Source: a virus
Taxonomy: Duplodnaviria > Heunggongvirae > Uroviricota > Caudoviricetes
Strand: one strand, 5' to 3'
DNA length: 4,142 nt
Virus record (IMG/VR): IMGVR_UViG_2711768040_000003
This document shows, one piece after another, positions 1 through 4,142 of the stretch (position 1 is its first letter; every line of letters begins with the position of its first letter). Position numbers and translations under genes: made by a program. The notes beneath the pieces are model-generated. The model ran no database searches and was not told the origin of the DNA. It saw only the letters and a program-made list of their open reading frames with translations.

Positions 1-292
1 CTGAGCTATGACTGCGCATTCGGGCCACCAGCAGAGGTGGCATTGCTTTTTCGATAGCTGGTAACAACGCCTGAATTTTTTTAACCGCATCAGGGGTGTC
101 TTTCTCCACCCAGCGGAAAATTTTCTGAGTATTGCGAGCCAGGGCTTCCGGATGGCTGTCGTCATACAGTTCCGGGAACGTCATTCCCAGCTCGAAATAC
201 GCTTTGGTAATTTTCGCAGCCGGTACTTTTTCGCCGTCCGGATGCGCCCAGGCATTCATCGCCATGCGGATGTGTTCATGCTTGATTTTCAT
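1..292 (-). CDS. ydaT: YdaT-like prophage protein (CII-position gene), N-terminal ~97 codons only; the C-terminus runs off the left edge
   Basis: Reverse-complement of 241-292 reads ATG AAA ATC AAG CAT GAA CAC = MKIKHEH..., which I recall as the YdaT N-terminus. No stop before position 1, so it is absent from the ORF track. It lies directly downstream of the YdaS-like gene on the same strand, as in Rac. Family assignment is from recall, not a search. Confidence 0.6.
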   Translation of the reverse strand, partial: MKIKHEHIRMAMNAWAHPDGEKVPAAKITKAYFELGMTFPELYDDSHPEALARNTQKIFRWVEKDTPDAVKKIQALLPAIEKAMPPLLVARMRSHSS

Positions 293-557
293 GAATCAAG
301 CTCCTAGAAAGTGGTTTTGTTAACGTTTTGGTATCTTCCAGCTCGGGCCAAATATTCATCCAATCAAAAGGCCTTAGTTGCTGACGTGTAACTTCACCAT
401 TACTGGCTCGCTCAATAAGGACACATAACGATGCCCCTAACACTTGACCTTTACTCAACGCCTTTCTTAGATAACCGATGCTGGTACCACACTCGCATGC
501 AAACATACGCTGTTCATCTGACGAAAGAGAATTGAGAAATATTCTTAATTCTTCCAT
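276..557 (-). CDS. ydaS: YdaS-like Cro/CI-type HTH regulator (Cro position of the switch)
   Basis: 93-aa ORF in the track. Motif ...GTSIGYLRKAL...IERASNGEVTRQQLRPFDWMNIWPEL matches my recollection of the YdaS/Cro-like family pattern. Strong SD: reverse-complement of 558-570 is CTAAGGAGTAGCT immediately before the ATG (minus strand, 557-555). Divergent from the repressor gene. Confidence 0.7.
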   Translation of the reverse strand: MEELRIFLNSLSSDEQRMFACECGTSIGYLRKALSKGQVLGASLCVLIERASNGEVTRQQLRPFDWMNIWPELEDTKTLTKPLSRSLIHENQA

Positions 558-582: not shown

Positions 583-664
583 AGAATACCTACAGGTAAA
601 CAAAAGTCAATACCCACAGGTTGTTTACCTTGCAGTAATCGCATCTATTATTTACCTATGGACA
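583..664. promoter_or_regulatory. OR-like divergent operator/promoter region: three 12-bp sites TACCTACAGGTA (587-598), TACCCACAGGTT (611-622), TACCTATGGACA (653-664)
   Basis: Seen directly: repeated imperfect palindromes with consensus TACCyAyrGGTA, centres 24 bp apart for the first two. Candidate leftward promoter on the minus strand, TTGACT (complement of 605-610), 16-bp spacer, TATTCT (complement of 583-588), overlapping the sites. Candidate rightward -10 TATTAT (646-651) lies 6 nt before the repressor ATG. Confidence 0.55.
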
Positions 665-1077
665 AATATGAATTTAGACGACAGCAACTCATCAAAATTC
701 GTGATGAGAAATGCGATGGTAAAGCGGTTAACGTGGCCAGAAAGATCGGGCGCGAGCCTTCTTATGTATCAAGAATGTTGTACCCAGAGGGGAAAAAGGG
801 AAAAAAACGGATCGCTGATGATATGGTGGAGATTATCGAAGAGTCCTTTGGGTTACCCCGGGGATGGATGGATGGTATCGTTTCATCATCAACGAACACA
901 GCCTCCAGTTATGAAACAAGGGTTCTAACGCCACGACAACGTATTTTTTTAGATCTCTTAGACGAACTGCCAGAAAGTGAAGCGGATAACTTATTAAAAA
1001 CTCTTGAAGAGAAAAAACAGTATTACAATATGATCTACGAAGAAATCCGTAAAAAGAAAGCACAAAACGCATCATAG
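658..1077 (+). CDS. Prophage immunity repressor, XRE-family HTH, DicA/RacR-like
   Basis: 139-aa ORF. N-terminal HTH-like segment AVNVARKIGREPSYVSRML. C-terminal LTPRQRIFLDLLDELPESEADNLLKTLEEK resembles my recollection of the DicA C-terminus (...LELLELFNALPESEQDTQL...). Divergent from the Cro-like gene and flanked on both sides by the same operator motif. No SD upstream of the ATG. Confidence 0.75.
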   Translation: MDKYEFRRQQLIKIRDEKCDGKAVNVARKIGREPSYVSRMLYPEGKKGKKRIADDMVEIIEESFGLPRGWMDGIVSSSTNTASSYETRVLTPRQRIFLDLLDELPESEADNLLKTLEEKKQYYNMIYEEIRKKKAQNAS

Positions 1078-1119
1078 CTCACCAAACAACTAGTCACCAG
1101 TTAAGATACCGCAAAAAGT

Positions 1120-1160
1120 TACCCATGGGTATTTACTTTTTAAATACCTATGGGTATCCT
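1120..1160. promoter_or_regulatory. OL-like operator pair TACCCATGGGTA (1120-1131, perfect palindrome) and TACCTATGGGTA (1145-1156), with a candidate early-left promoter
   Basis: Same TACCyAyrGGTA consensus as the sites at 587-664, centres 25 bp apart. Candidate -35 TTTACT (1132-1137), 17-bp spacer, -10 TATCCT (1155-1160) on the plus strand, oriented toward ydfA. Confidence 0.5.
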
Positions 1161-1342
1161 TCTTTTCATACCAACCCACCCCGCCCCACAGAATGCAGGG
1201 CAATACTTCGAGTTACCAGGCAGTGGTCAGGGGTTAAGTAGCCAGCCCTAGGCGTAAGAACATGACGGCAGGGTTCAACTTTAATAACTATGCAGCAGGT
1301 TTTTGTTCCGCTACCCCGGCGTTAAGGGGAAATGAGGTCAAC

Positions 1343-1498
1343 ATGGATACTATCGATCTTGGCAACAACGAATCTCTGGTGTACGGCGTGTTTCCCAACC
1401 AGGACGGCACATTCACCGCGATGACGTATACCAAAAGCAAAATGTTTAAAACCGAAAATGGTGCCCGTCGCTGGCTGGAAAGAAACTCAGGTGAGTGA
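1343..1498 (+). CDS. ydfA: YdfA/YdaF-like small prophage protein (DUF1391 family), 51 aa
   Basis: MDTIDLGNNESLVYGVFPNQDGTFTAMTYTKSK...ARRWLERNSGE is near-identical to my recollection of Qin YdfA. GAGG at 1334-1337 sits 5 nt upstream of the ATG. The longer track ORF from 1262 is an in-frame upstream extension with no good RBS. Confidence 0.8.
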   Translation: MDTIDLGNNESLVYGVFPNQDGTFTAMTYTKSKMFKTENGARRWLERNSGE

Positions 1499-1499
1499 T

Positions 1500-1628
1500 A
1501 TGGATTTCGACACAATCATGAAAAAGGCTTACGAAGAATACTTCGAAGGCCTTGCCGAAGGCGAAGAAGCTCTCAGCTTCAGTGAGTTTAAACAGGCGCT
1601 TTCCAGCTCGGCAAAATCTAACGGCTGA
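1500..1628 (+). CDS. ydfB: YdfB-like small protein, 42 aa (below the ORF-track length cutoff)
   Basis: My translation: MDFDTIMKKAYEEYFEGLAEGEEALSFSEFKQALSSSAKSNG. The ATG at 1500 follows the ydfA stop (TGA 1496-1498) with a 1-nt gap, the tight ydfA-ydfB arrangement I recall from Qin. Confidence 0.65.
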   Translation: MDFDTIMKKAYEEYFEGLAEGEEALSFSEFKQALSSSAKSNG

Positions 1629-1657
1629 TAAGCGAAGCAGCACCGCGAGGAATCAGT

Positions 1658-1876
1658 ATGCAGAAACGAGAACCCGTCATCATCGCGCCAGACTATACCG
1701 ATGATGAACTTTATGAGTGGATGCGCCAGAAAATTAATGCAGCGCAGGATCTGAAATGGGCCAATGAAGCCAGGGCTAAGCAGGCTGAAAATCTGTCCGC
1801 TCTGGAGCAGGATATCACCAGGCTGGAAAAAGCAGCGGCATTAAGCATTGCCAGAATGATTACATACCCGCGTTAA
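1658..1876 (+). CDS. ydfC: YdfC-like prophage protein, 72 aa
   Basis: 72-aa ORF in the track, MQKREPVIIAPDYTDDELYEWMRQKINAAQDLKWANEARAK...; length and position match Qin ydfC. GAGGAA at 1646-1651 sits about 7 nt upstream of the ATG. Confidence 0.75.
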   Translation: MQKREPVIIAPDYTDDELYEWMRQKINAAQDLKWANEARAKQAENLSALEQDITRLEKAAALSIARMITYPR

Positions 1877-1898
1877 TAGCTAACCAACGAGGCTAATA

Positions 1899-2219
1899 AT
1901 GGAATTTAAAGATTTACCAATGCAATTCCAGGAAATGGCAGCGAATATAGTTCGTTCCCAACTGGCGACTCTTGACCTGAGTACCGTAGAAAAAGAAACC
2001 ATCGATACTATATCCGGTAACGTGCGTCGTGCCTTTATCGGTCTGTACGAAGAGAAGCAGCTCTCTGATAACCAGGATTTACATGAAAAATACCTCCTGG
2101 ATCTAATGGATATCATTGATAAGGGGTTTGGCTTGTTAATGAAAAAGAAAGGGATTCGAATAGAACTCCTTGAAAATTACTTTGCAACAAAAAGCATTAA
2201 TTCTTTTGATTCAAAATAA
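1899..2219 (+). CDS. Hypothetical acidic protein, 106 aa, no recognised family; first gene of the AT-rich inserted segment
   Basis: 106-aa ORF in the track with a good SD (GAGG at 1889-1892, 6 nt before the ATG). Co-directional with the operon, starting 23 nt after the ydfC stop. AT-rich relative to flanking DNA. I recognise no motif. Confidence 0.6.
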   Translation: MEFKDLPMQFQEMAANIVRSQLATLDLSTVEKETIDTISGNVRRAFIGLYEEKQLSDNQDLHEKYLLDLMDIIDKGFGLLMKKKGIRIELLENYFATKSINSFDSK

Positions 2220-2472
2220 GAGAATTAATTACAGACTTAACATGCTCTTTCTCATGATTGAAGCTCTCATGATTGAAAGTGCCGGGTTGAAGCGAGTCGA
2301 TATAATCAACAAGACTCTGTCGTACGACTTCATTTTTATCCATAACAGATGCAAGAAATGAAATTGCTAAAAGAGTTATATCACTACGCGCCGCAGCATG
2401 CTGCAATGCTTTATCAAAATTATTAATCTGGCGTATCAGGGAGTTAATGATTTCATCATTTTCAGTCGACAT
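2197..2472 (-). CDS. Hypothetical 91-aa protein, convergent with and overlapping the 3' end of the 106-aa ORF by 23 bp
   Basis: ATG-initiated portion of the 202-aa minus-strand track ORF: MSTENDEIINSLIRQINNFDKALQHAAARSDITLLAISFLASVMDKNEVVRQSLVDYIDSLQPGTFNHESFNHEKEHVKSVINSLILNQKN. Plausible helical composition and an AAGGG SD-like sequence upstream. The track's extension to 2805 starts at TTG and is arginine-rich across the GC-rich region, so I trimmed it. Confidence 0.4.
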   Translation of the reverse strand: MSTENDEIINSLIRQINNFDKALQHAAARSDITLLAISFLASVMDKNEVVRQSLVDYIDSLQPGTFNHESFNHEKEHVKSVINSLILNQKN

Positions 2473-2806
2473 TTCACCCTTCTGAGGGTTGGTGATTAAG
2501 GAGTTCTCCACGGGTGAGGTGGAGTGCGTGCGCCGGACACGGGTGAGCATCCGGCACTGACAGTTTACTGAAAGGATATTTCCCTGAAAAGTCAGACCAT
2601 AACGCGAAAGCGCACGGCGAGGTAGCTGGTTCATAGATAGCCTGTCGTTAAATTTTCGTCGACCGTGCACTTCCGGTTGTGGCAACCCGCGAAATGGCGC
2701 GGCGGTAAGTATGGCGGGGTTATTCCTTCCCCGTTGAGGACACCGGGTTGTCAGGTTGACCATACGCTTAAGTGACAACCCCGCTGCAACGCCATCTGTT
2801 ATCAAT

Positions 2807-2864
2807 TTTCTGGTGACTTTTGGCGGTATCAGTTTTACTCCGTGACTGCTCTGCCGCCCTTTTT
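2807..2864 (+). ncRNA. dicF: DicF small regulatory RNA (cell-division inhibitor sRNA), including its 3' stem-loop and U-tract
   Basis: tttctggtgacttttggcggtatcagttttactccgtgactgctctgccgccc followed by ttttt matches my recollection of E. coli DicF (UUUCUGGUGACGUUUGGCGGUAUCAGUUUUACUCCGUGACUGCUCUGCCGCCC) with about one mismatch. It sits between ydfC and dicB as in Qin. Confidence 0.85.
2822..2864 (+). terminator. Intrinsic-terminator-like 3' end of DicF (GC-rich stem GGCGG...CCGCC followed by TTTTT)
   Basis: GGCGG (2822-2826) and CCGCC (2854-2858) flank an internally structured loop, followed by the T-run 2860-2864. DicF 3' ends are known to arise partly by termination. Confidence 0.5.
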
Positions 2865-2868
2865 AAAG

Positions 2869-3030
2869 TGAATTTTGTGATGCGGTGAATGCGGCTGAGC
2901 GCACGCGGAACAGTTAAAAAGGCCAGTTGACTTCCGTATTGGTTCTTATGGGTGGGTTCTCTGTATCCGGCGTTAATTGTTAACTGGTTAACGTCACCTG
3001 GAGGCACCAGGCACCGCATCACAAAATTCA
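2869..3030 (+). repeat. Perfect 19-bp inverted repeat (TGAATTTTGTGATGCGGTG at 2869-2887; CACCGCATCACAAAATTCA at 3012-3030) enclosing 124 bp between DicF and dicB
   Basis: Exact reverse-complement arms read from the sequence. In RNA this gives a 19-bp duplex starting 5 nt after the DicF U-tract and ending 17 nt before the dicB ATG. Confidence 0.7.
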
Positions 3031-3047
3031 TTGTTGAGGACGCGATA

Positions 3048-3236
3048 ATGGAAACGTTATTACCAAACGTTAATACGTCTGAAGGTTGCTTTGAAATTGG
3101 TGTCAAAATCAGTAACCCTGTATTTACTGAAGATGCCATTAACAAAAGAAAACACGAACGGGAGTTATTAAATAAAGTATGCATTGTTTCAATGCTGGCC
3201 CGTTTACGTCTGATGCAAAAAGGATACTGGCAATGA
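3048..3236 (+). CDS. dicB: DicB cell-division inhibitor, 62 aa
   Basis: METLLPNVNTSEGCFEIGVKISNPVFTEDAINKRKHERELLNKVCIVSMLARLRLMQKGYWQ is near-identical to my recollection of K-12 DicB. In frame with track ORF 2952..3236. Confidence 0.9.
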   Translation: METLLPNVNTSEGCFEIGVKISNPVFTEDAINKRKHERELLNKVCIVSMLARLRLMQKGYWQ

Positions 3237-3436
3237 ATACATCATTTGCACTCGTTCTGACGGTTTTTCTTAATACGGGCGAGCCGCTTGACCTTATTGT
3301 TGACATACGTGATTCAATGGAAGAATGCATGGCTGCCGCAGCGGAACAGAAAATTCCCGGCAACTGTTATCCGGTTGATAAAGTTATTCACATGGACAAT
3401 AACGAAATCCCGGCGGGACTTAAAACAGCACCGTAA
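3233..3436 (+). CDS. ydfD: YdfD-like prophage lysis protein, 67 aa, with an N-terminal hydrophobic segment
   Basis: MNTSFALVLTVFLNTGEPLDLIVDIRDSMEECMAAAAEQKIPGNCYPVDKVIH...; start overlaps the dicB stop (ATGA, 3233-3236) as in Qin dicB-ydfD. In frame with track ORF 3179..3436. Confidence 0.8.
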   Translation: MNTSFALVLTVFLNTGEPLDLIVDIRDSMEECMAAAAEQKIPGNCYPVDKVIHMDNNEIPAGLKTAP

Positions 3437-3516
3437 TTAATATCCGGTTTCATTTTTATATGCCAGCAATGGCAGGGATTTGTTCACCCTTAAATCTGTA
3501 ATGAGGTTAAAACAAA

Positions 3517-4142
3517 ATGAGTAAAGTCTTTATTTGCGCCGCCATTCCGGACGAACAGGCAATAAAGGAAGAAGGTGCAGTTGCTGTAGCCACTGCCATC
3601 GAAGCCGGTGACGAACGCCGCGCCCGTGCCAAATTTACCTGGCAATTCCTGGAGCAATATCCGGCTGCTCAGGACTGCGCTTATAAATTTCTTGTCTGCG
3701 AGGATAAACCCGGTATACCCCGCCCTGCCCTCGATTCCTGGGATGCTGAATATATGCAGGAAAACCGCTGGGATGAGGCGTCTGCTTCCTTTGTCCCGGT
3801 CGAGACTGAATCCGATCCGATGAACGTCACTTTTGACAACCTAGCCCCTGAAGTACAGAACGCTGTCATGGTTAAGTTCGACACATGTGAAAACATCACC
3901 GTTGATATGGTTATTAGCGCACAGGAATTGTTGCAGGAAGACATGGCAACATTCGACGGACATATCGTTGAAGCGTTGATGAAAATGCCAGAAGTTAACG
4001 CCATGTATCCGGAGCTTAAGTTGCACGCCATTGGGTGGGTTAAGCATAAATGTATTCCTGGTGCTAAATGGCCCGAAATTCAGGCAGAGATGCGCATCTG
4101 GAAAAAACGTCGCGAAGGTGAACGCAAGGAAACCGGAAAATA
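3517..4142 (+). CDS. Prophage early-left-operon protein, partial (no stop within window); possibly YdfE-like
   Basis: Open frame from ATG 3517 (MSKVFICAAIPDEQAIKEEGAVAVATAIEAGDERRARAKF...) to the window end, about 208 codons. GAGG at 3503-3506 upstream. Missing from the track because it has no stop. Position after ydfD matches Qin ydfE, but I cannot confirm the family from memory. Confidence 0.65.
   Translation, partial: MSKVFICAAIPDEQAIKEEGAVAVATAIEAGDERRARAKFTWQFLEQYPAAQDCAYKFLVCEDKPGIPRPALDSWDAEYMQENRWDEASASFVPVETESDPMNVTFDNLAPEVQNAVMVKFDTCENITVDMVISAQELLQEDMATFDGHIVEALMKMPEVNAMYPELKLHAIGWVKHKCIPGAKWPEIQAEMRIWKKRREGERKETGK

Follow-up and report, generated by a model that had tools for sequence, protein, structure and literature searches.

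A probable lambda-like immunity cassette with TACC-N4-GGTA sites on both sides of the repressor gene in a lambdoid prophage

The repressor gene lies between two clusters of a symmetric motif

We analyzed a 4,142-nucleotide stretch of DNA from a virus of the Caudoviricetes (IMG/VR record IMGVR_UViG_2711768040_000003). We will refer to the whole stretch as the window; it comprises a lambdoid prophage's early regulatory region. A gene for a 139-amino-acid repressor (positions 658-1077, plus strand; PHROG 5736, E = 4e-70) diverges from a gene for a 93-amino-acid Cro-like (YdaS-like) protein (276-557, minus strand; PHROG 35, E = 8e-23, with a weak match to YdaS in Pfam). The gap between the two genes is 100 bp, and the same arrangement is repeated in relatives. 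Copies of a motif, TACC-N4-GGTA, lie in this gap and also downstream of the repressor gene. Based on the sequence and its relatives, we are confident that the region from about 305 to 1166 is a lambdoid immunity cassette, comprising the cro-like gene, three right operator sites (OR1, OR2, and OR3), the repressor gene, and the left operator sites OL2 and OL1. The copies of the motif are very probably the binding sites, at three early promoters, for the repressor and its Cro-like partner.

The operator consensus is tTACC-YRYR-GGTAa (Y is C or T, R is A or G), with a symmetric core of 12 bp. The exact motif, TACCNNNNGGTA, is found three times in the window (at 587, 1120, and 1145), versus 0.04 expected, and none of 200 shuffled sequences reached three. 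With up to one mismatch, there are seven matches versus 0.91 expected, and again no shuffle matched the observed count. (At two mismatches, about 12 matches are expected in the window by chance.) A repeat finder that was blind to the motif recovered the copies at 585-597, 609-621, and 1143-1155 and also the pair at 1120 and 1145 (families D1 and D7). Relative to the repressor's ATG, the sites in the window are at -71, -47, -32, +462, and +487. Those at 587, 611, 1120, and 1145 hold the same positions in all informative relatives. The initial annotation of this locus had described five sites, three on the side of the cro-like gene and two on the other side, and had put the spacing within each cluster at 24-25 bp. 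We measured 24 bp (587 to 611) and 25 bp (1120 to 1145). All five of the listed strings are present, and the count of three plus two is right, but one member of the list (653-664) was misidentified.

The sites keep a fixed register with predicted promoters

A consensus promoter scan over positions 500-1400 called exactly two promoters, which resemble lambda's right promoter (PR) and its promoter for repressor maintenance (PRM). The predicted PR-like promoter of the cro/ydaT operon (583-610, minus strand) has TTGACT (610-605), a 16-nt spacer, and TATTCT (588-583). The predicted PRM-like promoter (624-651, plus strand) has TTTACC (624-629), a 16-nt spacer, and TATTAT (646-651).

The three right operator sites are interleaved with these promoters. 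OR1 (TACCTACAGGTA, 587-598) is an exact match, at an offset that is -73 or -71 from the repressor's ATG in relatives. It fills the spacer of the predicted PR, and its terminal TA is shared with the -10 hexamer. OR2 (TACCCACAGGTT, 611-622) has one mismatch, in that it ends with GGTT; in relatives it is at -48 or -47 and, where it is kept, it mostly has GGTT as well. OR2 is wedged between the -35 hexamers of PR and PRM, abutting both, and its center is at about -41.5 relative to the predicted start of PRM. OR3 (TACCTTGCAGTA, 626-637) also has one mismatch. It overlaps the predicted PRM -35 and is the equivalent of the conserved site at -33 or -32 in the relatives, which is perfect in most of them; in close relatives, it reads TACCTATTGGTA or TACCTTATGGTA. 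The register of PR relative to the sites is repeated in 46 unique versions of the OR region from related loci, and position 6 of the -10 hexamer is T in 96% of these.

The initial annotation had missed 626-637. Instead, it proposed that a different string, TACCTATGGACA (653-664), overlaps the start of the repressor gene in the way that lambda's OR3 overlaps PRM. This string has two mismatches and is unsupported as an operator; the equivalent of OR3 is 626-637, over the PRM -35.

The predicted start of PRM, at about 658, is the A of the repressor's ATG. Because just 6 nt separate the PRM -10 hexamer from the ATG, with no Shine-Dalgarno sequence ahead of it, we predict a leaderless mRNA for the repressor. 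Related loci also have a -10-like hexamer about 6 nt ahead of the ATG.

On the other side of the repressor gene, OL2 (TACCCATGGGTA, 1120-1131) and its conserved partner OL1 (TACCTATGGGTA, 1145-1156) are both exact matches. They flank or fill parts of a predicted left promoter (PL) for the ydfA-dicF-dicB operon (1132-1160, plus strand), which has TTTACT (1132-1137), a 17-nt spacer, and TATCCT (1155-1160), with a predicted start at about 1167. OL2 is directly upstream of the -35 hexamer, and OL1 sits in the spacer with its terminal TA overlapping the -10 hexamer. Among 70 unique versions of the OL region, OL2 is followed by six nucleotides that look like a -35 hexamer (TTGACx, TAGACA, or TTTACT) and then by a spacer of 17-18 nt, and position 6 of the -10 hexamer (the TA of OL1 plus the next four bases) is T in 98.6%.

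We also noticed a conserved run of A (GCAAAAAG, CAAAAAA, and similar) directly upstream of OL2, both in the window (1111-1118) and in most related loci. Relative to the predicted PL, it falls between about -50 and -58, and it may be similar to an UP element.

The sites are inherited with the DNA-binding domain and Cro

We scanned one genome per species for homologs of the repressor's DNA-binding domain and obtained 23 loci. These are from Yersinia, Arsenophonus, Edwardsiella, Klebsiella, Brenneria, Pantoea, Leclercia, Dryocola, Atlantibacter, Aeromonas, Izhakiella, and Orbus, as well as from the betaproteobacteria Ferrovum and a metagenome-assembled genome from the Hydrogenophilaceae. Most of the 23 loci have TACC-N4-GGTA at about -73, -48, and -33 from the repressor's ATG and a pair of motifs, 25-26 bp apart, downstream of the repressor gene. 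In every related locus that we examined, the region downstream of the repressor gene contains at least one exact site, and nearly all of these loci have a pair 25-26 bp apart. In all, homologs of the DNA-binding domain accompany the motif at set offsets in 24 loci from other genera and in mEp043, a viable phage. A Cro homolog (42-73% identity) lies opposite the repressor in 17 of the 25 related loci that were compared.

The motif is largely confined to these positions. In 188 kb of related loci, there are 80 exact sites at OR or OL and 5 elsewhere, versus 2.9 expected, and four of the five are OL sites with a degenerate partner. The reverse test gave a similar picture. We chose 120 viral contigs solely because they contain two copies of the motif 12-14 bp apart, and in 91 of them the fetched stretch encodes a homolog of Cro or of the DNA-binding domain. 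Several of the remaining contigs resemble the same architecture cut by contig ends. Judged by the position counts and by this reverse search, unrelated DNA clearly does not carry the motif at a comparable density.

When close relatives are compared (protein identity of 84-91%), OR1, OL1, and OL2 always keep their outer TACC and GGTA, and it is the central four bases that vary. We read invariant outer half-sites around a drifting center as the signature of selection.

Conservation is not complete: OR2 is missing from five Klebsiella loci, and the loci from Izhakiella (L024) and Orbus (L025) deviate. The five Klebsiella loci (L006, L008, L010, L011, and L012; at about 3928-3980) have retained the OL pair and the site at -73; the site at -33 is retained in three of them. 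In place of OR2 they have TTTGCTATATTTT, and they have no recognizable divergent Cro homolog. These loci are a variant architecture of the same family of DNA-binding domains.

Overall, the initial annotation had read the locus by the logic of lambda's OR and OL, with one repressor silencing both divergent early promoters. Its choice of the third site was wrong, but comparison strongly supports the core of that reading: the motif, the repressor's DNA-binding domain, and Cro travel together across genera, and the sites are in a fixed register with the promoters.

The repressor is a chimera

Residues 1-73 of the repressor are a helix-turn-helix (HTH) DNA-binding domain of the same type as in cI from phage mEp043. 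These residues are 70-82% identical to the N-terminal domains of hundreds of prophage repressors of the LexA/S24 type, which are 221-242 amino acids long, and the same range of identity to many homologs is seen over residues 1-74. Residues 1-73 are also similar to short proteins of 135-140 amino acids, like the repressor itself. The domain fits the pattern MDKYE..RR..L..IRD..C.GKA..AR.I.REPSYVSRMLYPEGKKGKKRIADDM, and the recognition helix is nearly invariant in the group.

The C-terminal part is of another origin. Pfam identifies no S24 peptidase domain (PF00717) in the 139-amino-acid protein, and the alignment shows a tail in place of the homologs' S24 domain. This tail (residues ~89-138) is a helical domain of the DicA type: residues 89-134 align to residues 84-129 of DicA with 33% identity (E = 6e-7). 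It is also homologous to the C-terminal domain of CI from phage Tritos. (The relationship to DicA and Tritos was obtained by direct comparison. A search of a word-indexed database with the C-terminal 64 amino acids yielded nothing beyond fragments of the same protein.) As a whole, the repressor joins an mEp043-type DNA-binding domain to a DicA-type helical tail in one chimera, without an S24 cleavage domain.

In an AlphaFold model of the repressor (pLDDT of 86.8), there are helices at 3-18, 23-30, 34-40, 54-63, 92-103, and 106-138, which make up a four-helix N-terminal domain, a disordered linker (77-87), and then a helical hairpin (92-138). The N-terminal domain of the predicted model resembles HTH proteins of the XRE type. 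The best fold match is the Rep protein of Salmonella phage SPC32H (PDB 5d50), and it is weak (Foldseek E = 1.3e-3, TM-score 0.47). A sequence search of the PDB with the repressor gave insignificant matches only.

The chimera's junction is near 880-920, and at the DNA level, just 961-1076 matches Tritos (at 76%). CI from Tritos is also 139 amino acids long; it has the related helical tail and an unrelated DNA-binding domain of the XRE type. We also found proteins of 135-136 amino acids (P0015-P0018) that start with MNLDDSNSSKFVM, which corresponds to an overlapping alternative frame (668-928, +2), and then rejoin the repressor's frame. Some genomes therefore carry frameshifted copies of the repressor gene that are probably inactivated.

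The cassette has been exchanged as a unit

As compared to the window, phage Tritos is 96% identical across 1-304 and 97% identical across 1174-1915, with a different cro and a different DNA-binding domain in between. By comparison to Tritos and to the Rac prophage of E. coli K-12, the junctions of the mosaic are at about 304/305 and at 1166-1174. Homology to Rac starts at 1167, which is also the predicted start of PL. Both operator clusters are just inside the exchanged block. These alignments indicate that exchange involves a single immunity cassette that holds the operators, the repressor gene, and cro.

Among complete genomes, the prophage that best matches the window is integrated at ompW and is 95.9% identical across its entire length. 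From cro to OL, a stretch of 985 bp is present at near full length in 822 of 5426 complete E. coli genomes, with identity of up to 99.4%.

To the left of the cassette is the 5' part of ydaT (2-292, minus strand), which runs off the left end of the window. It encodes a CII-like regulator (Pfam YdaT_toxin, E = 2.2e-9; PHROG 163, E = 1.6e-40). PHROG 163 is described as a "CII-like transcriptional activator," and the gene is annotated as a YdaT family protein in H1. At the ydaS/ydaT junction is an inverted repeat, TTGATT-N6-AATCAA (282-299), which overlaps both the first codon of ydaT and the 3' end of the cro-like gene. The repeat is an exact match, with 0.04 expected, to the YdaT site OM that was footprinted in prophage CP-933P, which has the same sequence and the same location (PMC9986795). 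In the window, the repeat falls in an island of 30 bp (269-298) that is 96.7% identical to K-12 Rac while the flanks have diverged. As a candidate binding site for YdaT, 282-299 is probably the CII-like input of a promoter for repressor establishment (PRE) that reads toward the repressor gene.

How the switch might operate

What follows is a model built on the sequence; it covers binding, cooperativity, activation, the start of the leaderless mRNA, and how induction would occur. A dimer of the repressor presumably reads each 12-bp site via HTH residues ~23-40. At OR1 and OL1, the repressor would cover the -10 hexamers and spacers of PR and PL, and the partner site of each, at a distance of 24-25 bp, adjoins the -35 hexamer. 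Occupancy of OR and OL together would silence both the cro/ydaT-replication operon and the ydfABC-dicF-dicB-ydfD operon. In lambda, CI activates PRM from a position of about -42. OR2, near -41.5 from the predicted start of the leaderless PRM transcript, is placed like lambda's OR2 and could activate the repressor's synthesis. OR3, over the PRM -35, could provide negative autoregulation and is likely the first target of Cro. YdaT probably adds a CII-like input for establishment via 282-299.

Because a DicA-type helical tail stands in place of the S24 domain, derepression is probably independent of cleavage via RecA, and would proceed by an antirepressor or by bistable switching. (We did not find an antirepressor in the window.) DicA itself is a short repressor that is not cleaved by RecA and is counteracted by the antirepressor Rem (PMC10448788). 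By analogy, we infer that the repressor described here is independent of the SOS response.

The initial annotation went on to propose that DicF, DicB, YdfD, and YdaT, all toxic when derepressed, hang on a single switch. This is consistent with experiments on the Qin and CP-933P prophages, but it is an argument by analogy, and those systems have further layers, namely CII-like input from YdaT, antirepressors, and RNA processing (PMC10448788, PMC8630535). By the same analogy, we infer that one repressor may hold all of these toxic genes in check.

Points against this reading and alternatives to it

Several points weigh against a lambda-like cassette. The hexamers of the predicted PL score 8 out of 12, which is below the cut-off of the promoter scan, so PL was not called; we hold it to be real because its register is conserved across the 70 unique versions of OL. 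Just two OL sites are evident, versus three in lambda. OR3 in the window has a mismatch (AGTA); because close relatives hold a perfect site at 626-637, we consider AGTA to be a slightly weakened copy of the conserved OR3. The centers of OR2 and OR3 are just 15 bp apart, unlike lambda's 23 bp, so it is uncertain whether both sites can be occupied at the same time and whether there is lambda-like cooperativity. The 139-amino-acid repressor has no match in Pfam. Finally, searching the literature for mEp043, the RefSeq accession, and the operator strings turned up no relevant paper on this cassette or family.

Might the TACC-N4-GGTA repeats be without function and arise from chance or base composition? 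The motif is short, with eight specified bases, but the shuffled sequences never reached the observed counts, the positions of the motif are kept across genera, and a search with the motif alone recovers the protein family. We regard this explanation as effectively refuted already. As to 653-664, it is improbable that this string is a functional third operator over the repressor's start, whether in place of 626-637 or beside it. Its left half (TACC) and its center (TATG) do fit the consensus, the string is kept in the closest relatives (L029 and L030), and a protein bound at +1 might, in principle, block PRM. But both mismatches are in one half-site (GACA), and the window should contain about a dozen matches of equal quality by chance. 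Furthermore, none of the distant relatives has TACC at the equivalent offset (-5), the right half is fixed by the codons ATG-GAC-AAA (Met-Asp-Lys), and the copy from Salmonella is further degraded, to TACTTATGGATA. Because it has no distant counterpart, a codon-bound right half, and a degraded copy in Salmonella, we treat 653-664 as a chance resemblance and reject it as an operator, given its chance-level quality and lack of conservation. Even less likely, in our judgment, is that the cassette is a decayed remnant, in which the repressor is a truncated and non-functional derivative of an S24-type cI and the sites are fossils or are used by the Cro-like protein only. It is true that most proteins with a homologous DNA-binding domain have an S24 domain and the 139-amino-acid protein does not, that databases contain frameshifted versions of the gene (P0015 and P0018), and that the host element is similar to Qin, Rac, and other cryptic prophages. 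However, the C-terminal part is a distinct and confidently folded helical domain that is homologous to the tails of DicA and of CI from Tritos, a sequenced phage. Also, the cassette is widespread at near full length in complete E. coli genomes, homologs of the short type are found in Salmonella, Yersinia, Serratia, and Arsenophonus, and the half-sites remain intact while the central bases drift.

A different possibility concerns the OL pair (1120-1156), which could act primarily or additionally as an RNA hairpin that ends or stabilizes the repressor transcript and blocks read-through from PRM into the toxic dicBF operon. We think that this is possible but somewhat doubtful. The scan does give a terminator-like match at 1120-1166 (plus strand), with a 16-bp stem, a 5-nt loop, and a T-rich tail (TCCTTCTTTT). 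The predicted stability is -22.9 kcal/mol (z = -4.0), none of 200 shuffles is as stable, and this is the sole hairpin between the stop codon (1077) and PL. In the clade of 139-amino-acid repressors, the OL pair is about 42 bp past the repressor's stop codon, and, beyond each site being palindromic, OL2 is the reverse complement of OL1, so that they can form a hairpin of 14-16 bp, usually followed by TCCTTCTTTTCA. (The loci considered here were the window, at 1115-1166, and L028-L030, L043, L048, L087, L095, L114, and L124.) Within this clade, all four central pairs are kept in 7 of 8 unique variants, with compensatory changes in the center; there are four fully Watson-Crick combinations (CATA/TATG, CACA/TGTG, CACG/CGTG, and CATG/CATG), and most have a T-rich tail. 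If OL2 and OL1 are paired across loci, full pairing is expected for about 38% within the short class and for 10-13% across the whole family. On the other hand, the T-tract is absent from L028 and weak in L029 and L030, the base of the stem is AT-rich, and the tail is broken by C residues. Mutations templated by the quasipalindrome could yield the same complementary changes without selection, and operator function fully explains where the sites lie relative to the -35 and -10 of PL. Also, complementarity between OL2 and OL1 is not in excess across the family (2.33 versus 2.24; for long repressors, 2.18 versus 2.08). We therefore rejected family-wide selection for the hairpin, since its signal is confined to the 139-amino-acid clade, and also a conserved T-tract after OL1, which is not conserved beyond the closest relatives. 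A role as a hairpin is compatible with operator function, so a dual role is possible.

Our preferred reading, in which the motif copies are operators within an exchanged immunity cassette, could be extended. Tentatively, and with less than even confidence, we suggest that a single specificity of DNA-binding domain, Cro, and operator is carried on two interchangeable C-terminal modules, and that the OL pair of the 139-amino-acid clade doubles as a terminator or stabilizer hairpin. The S24 self-cleaving module would be the one found in mEp043 and in many prophages of the Enterobacterales, and the DicA-type helical module the one found in the window's repressor. If so, homoimmune prophages could differ in whether they are inducible by the SOS response, and the OL hairpin would insulate the toxic dicBF operon from PRM read-through.

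Comparison to known systems

As in lambda, the repressor and cro are divergent, three OR sites are common to PR and PRM, and a second cluster of operators is at a PL that is on the far side of the repressor gene and shares its direction of transcription. Also as in lambda, the promoter-proximal pairs are 24-25 bp apart, PRM has an OR2-like site at about -42, the mRNA of the repressor lacks a leader (a prediction, in our case), and there is a CII-like input at the cro/cII junction. But there is no sequence relationship. Besides the closer spacing of OR2 and OR3 and the smaller number of OL sites, lambda's sites are 17 bp rather than 12 bp, the window's repressor has no S24 self-cleavage domain, the analogs of Cro and CII are of the YdaS and YdaT types, and PL drives a dicBF-type operon instead of N.

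A close counterpart to the cassette is in mEp043 (PV340537, NC_019706), which is a viable phage with annotated cI, cro, cII, and N. The DNA-binding domains are 76% identical, and its Cro (76 amino acids) is 73% identical to the Cro-like protein. mEp043 has TACC-N4-GGTA at -72, -47, and -32 and a downstream pair 25 bp apart. Judging from these similarities, mEp043 and the window most probably have the same operator specificity. On the other hand, its cI is 228 amino acids long with an S24 peptidase domain, its cII and N are of the lambda type, and it has an extra open reading frame (ORF) between cI and OL. The window has the DicA-type tail instead, and its cassette is flanked by ydaT and dicBF. 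The cI/cro region of mEp043 appears to lack experimental characterization.

In the Qin prophage, which is controlled by DicA, DicC, and dicBp, the downstream operon is the same (ydfABC-dicF-dicB-ydfD, 92-97% identical), and the repressor is also short and non-cleavable, with the homologous C-terminal domain noted above. According to PMC10448788, which cites Bejar et al. 1988, Qin has operators at the cro-side promoter and at the promoter of the dicB operon, and the window too has operators at these two places. In contrast, the DNA-binding domains, the Cro proteins (DicC in Qin), and the operators all differ, and DicA belongs to the XRE family by Pfam, whereas the window's DNA-binding domain has no match there. 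There are no TACC-N4-GGTA sites in Qin and no Qin operators in the window. We looked for homology of the DNA-binding domain to repressors of the Qin or Rac type and found none, as the N-terminal half of DicA is dissimilar and RacR is unrelated. Besides its unrelated repressor, the Rac system of K-12 (RacR/YdaS/YdaT) has a YdaS that is only weakly similar (E = 7e-6) and has kilR/sieB downstream instead of dicBF. It does share the gene order, the 30-bp island at the start of ydaT, and DNA homology across 1167-1330 (87%).

CP-933P (Sp12) of E. coli O157:H7 also has an intergenic region of about 100 bp with back-to-back PR and PRM, a downstream PL-like promoter with matching operators, and the identical TTGATT-N6-AATCAA at its ydaS/ydaT junction. 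In CP-933P, the mRNA of the repressor gene paaR2 was found by experiment to be leaderless (PMC8630535), and YdaS acts as Cro and YdaT as CII (PMC8630535, PMC9986795). However, similarity of the window's repressor to PaaR2 is not established, and in CP-933P the repressor gene is followed by the toxin-antitoxin genes paaA2-parE2, which are cotranscribed with it, while in the window OL is 42 bp past the stop codon with no ORFs in between. As for operators of the CP-933P type (GTTTAGTAA), the window has three matches with one mismatch, versus 1.0 expected; these are not clustered, and we do not consider them to be enriched.

SPC32H Rep (PDB 5d50 and 5d4z) is similar to the window's repressor in having an N-terminal HTH and a helical C-terminal domain with no peptidase, but the identity is 16-21%, and SPC32H Rep is controlled by an antirepressor, with none identified in the window.

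The regulatory logic that we propose is that of textbook lambda, and it has experimental precedents in Qin (PMC10448788) and CP-933P (PMC8630535, PMC9986795), so the conceptual surprise is small. The specificity of the DNA-binding domain, Cro, and operators appears to be previously undescribed, and the pairing of the TACC-N4-GGTA specificity with a DicA-type tail is also new. The analysis provides a testable operator consensus and promoter maps for an immunity type carried by about 15% of complete E. coli genomes and also by prophages from many Enterobacterales and from outside that order. The S24-type cI of mEp043 and the DicA-tailed repressor are a natural pair for studying how the mode of induction evolves independently of immunity specificity.

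The dicBF operon and its leader

Downstream of PL is a dicBF operon of the Qin type (1343-3436, plus strand; Pfam DUF1391, DicB, and DUF1482; Rfam DicF). Its genes, all on the plus strand, are ydfA (1343-1498), ydfB (1500-1628), ydfC (1658-1876), an ORF of 106 amino acids (1899-2219), the DicF RNA (2808-2859; 75.8 bits in Rfam), dicB (3048-3236), and ydfD (3233-3436). A gene for exonuclease VIII, also on the plus strand, starts at about 3518. The window is 97% identical to K-12 Qin over 1305-1896 and 92% identical over 2487-4142.

The block of about 590 bp between these two alignments (1897-2486) is missing from K-12 Qin and from phage Tritos, and its flanks match at 92-97%. It holds the 106-amino-acid ORF and a convergent ORF of about 91 amino acids (2194-2469, minus strand; hypothetical in H1), and it resembles a moron inserted within the dicBF operon.

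The leader of about 175 nt between PL and ydfA (1167-1340) is kept across prophages with different immunity cassettes. It is 87% identical to K-12 Rac (1167-1330) and, from 1174, 97% identical to Tritos, and homology to Qin begins at 1305. The leader is rich in G+C (CCCACCCCGCCCCAC...).

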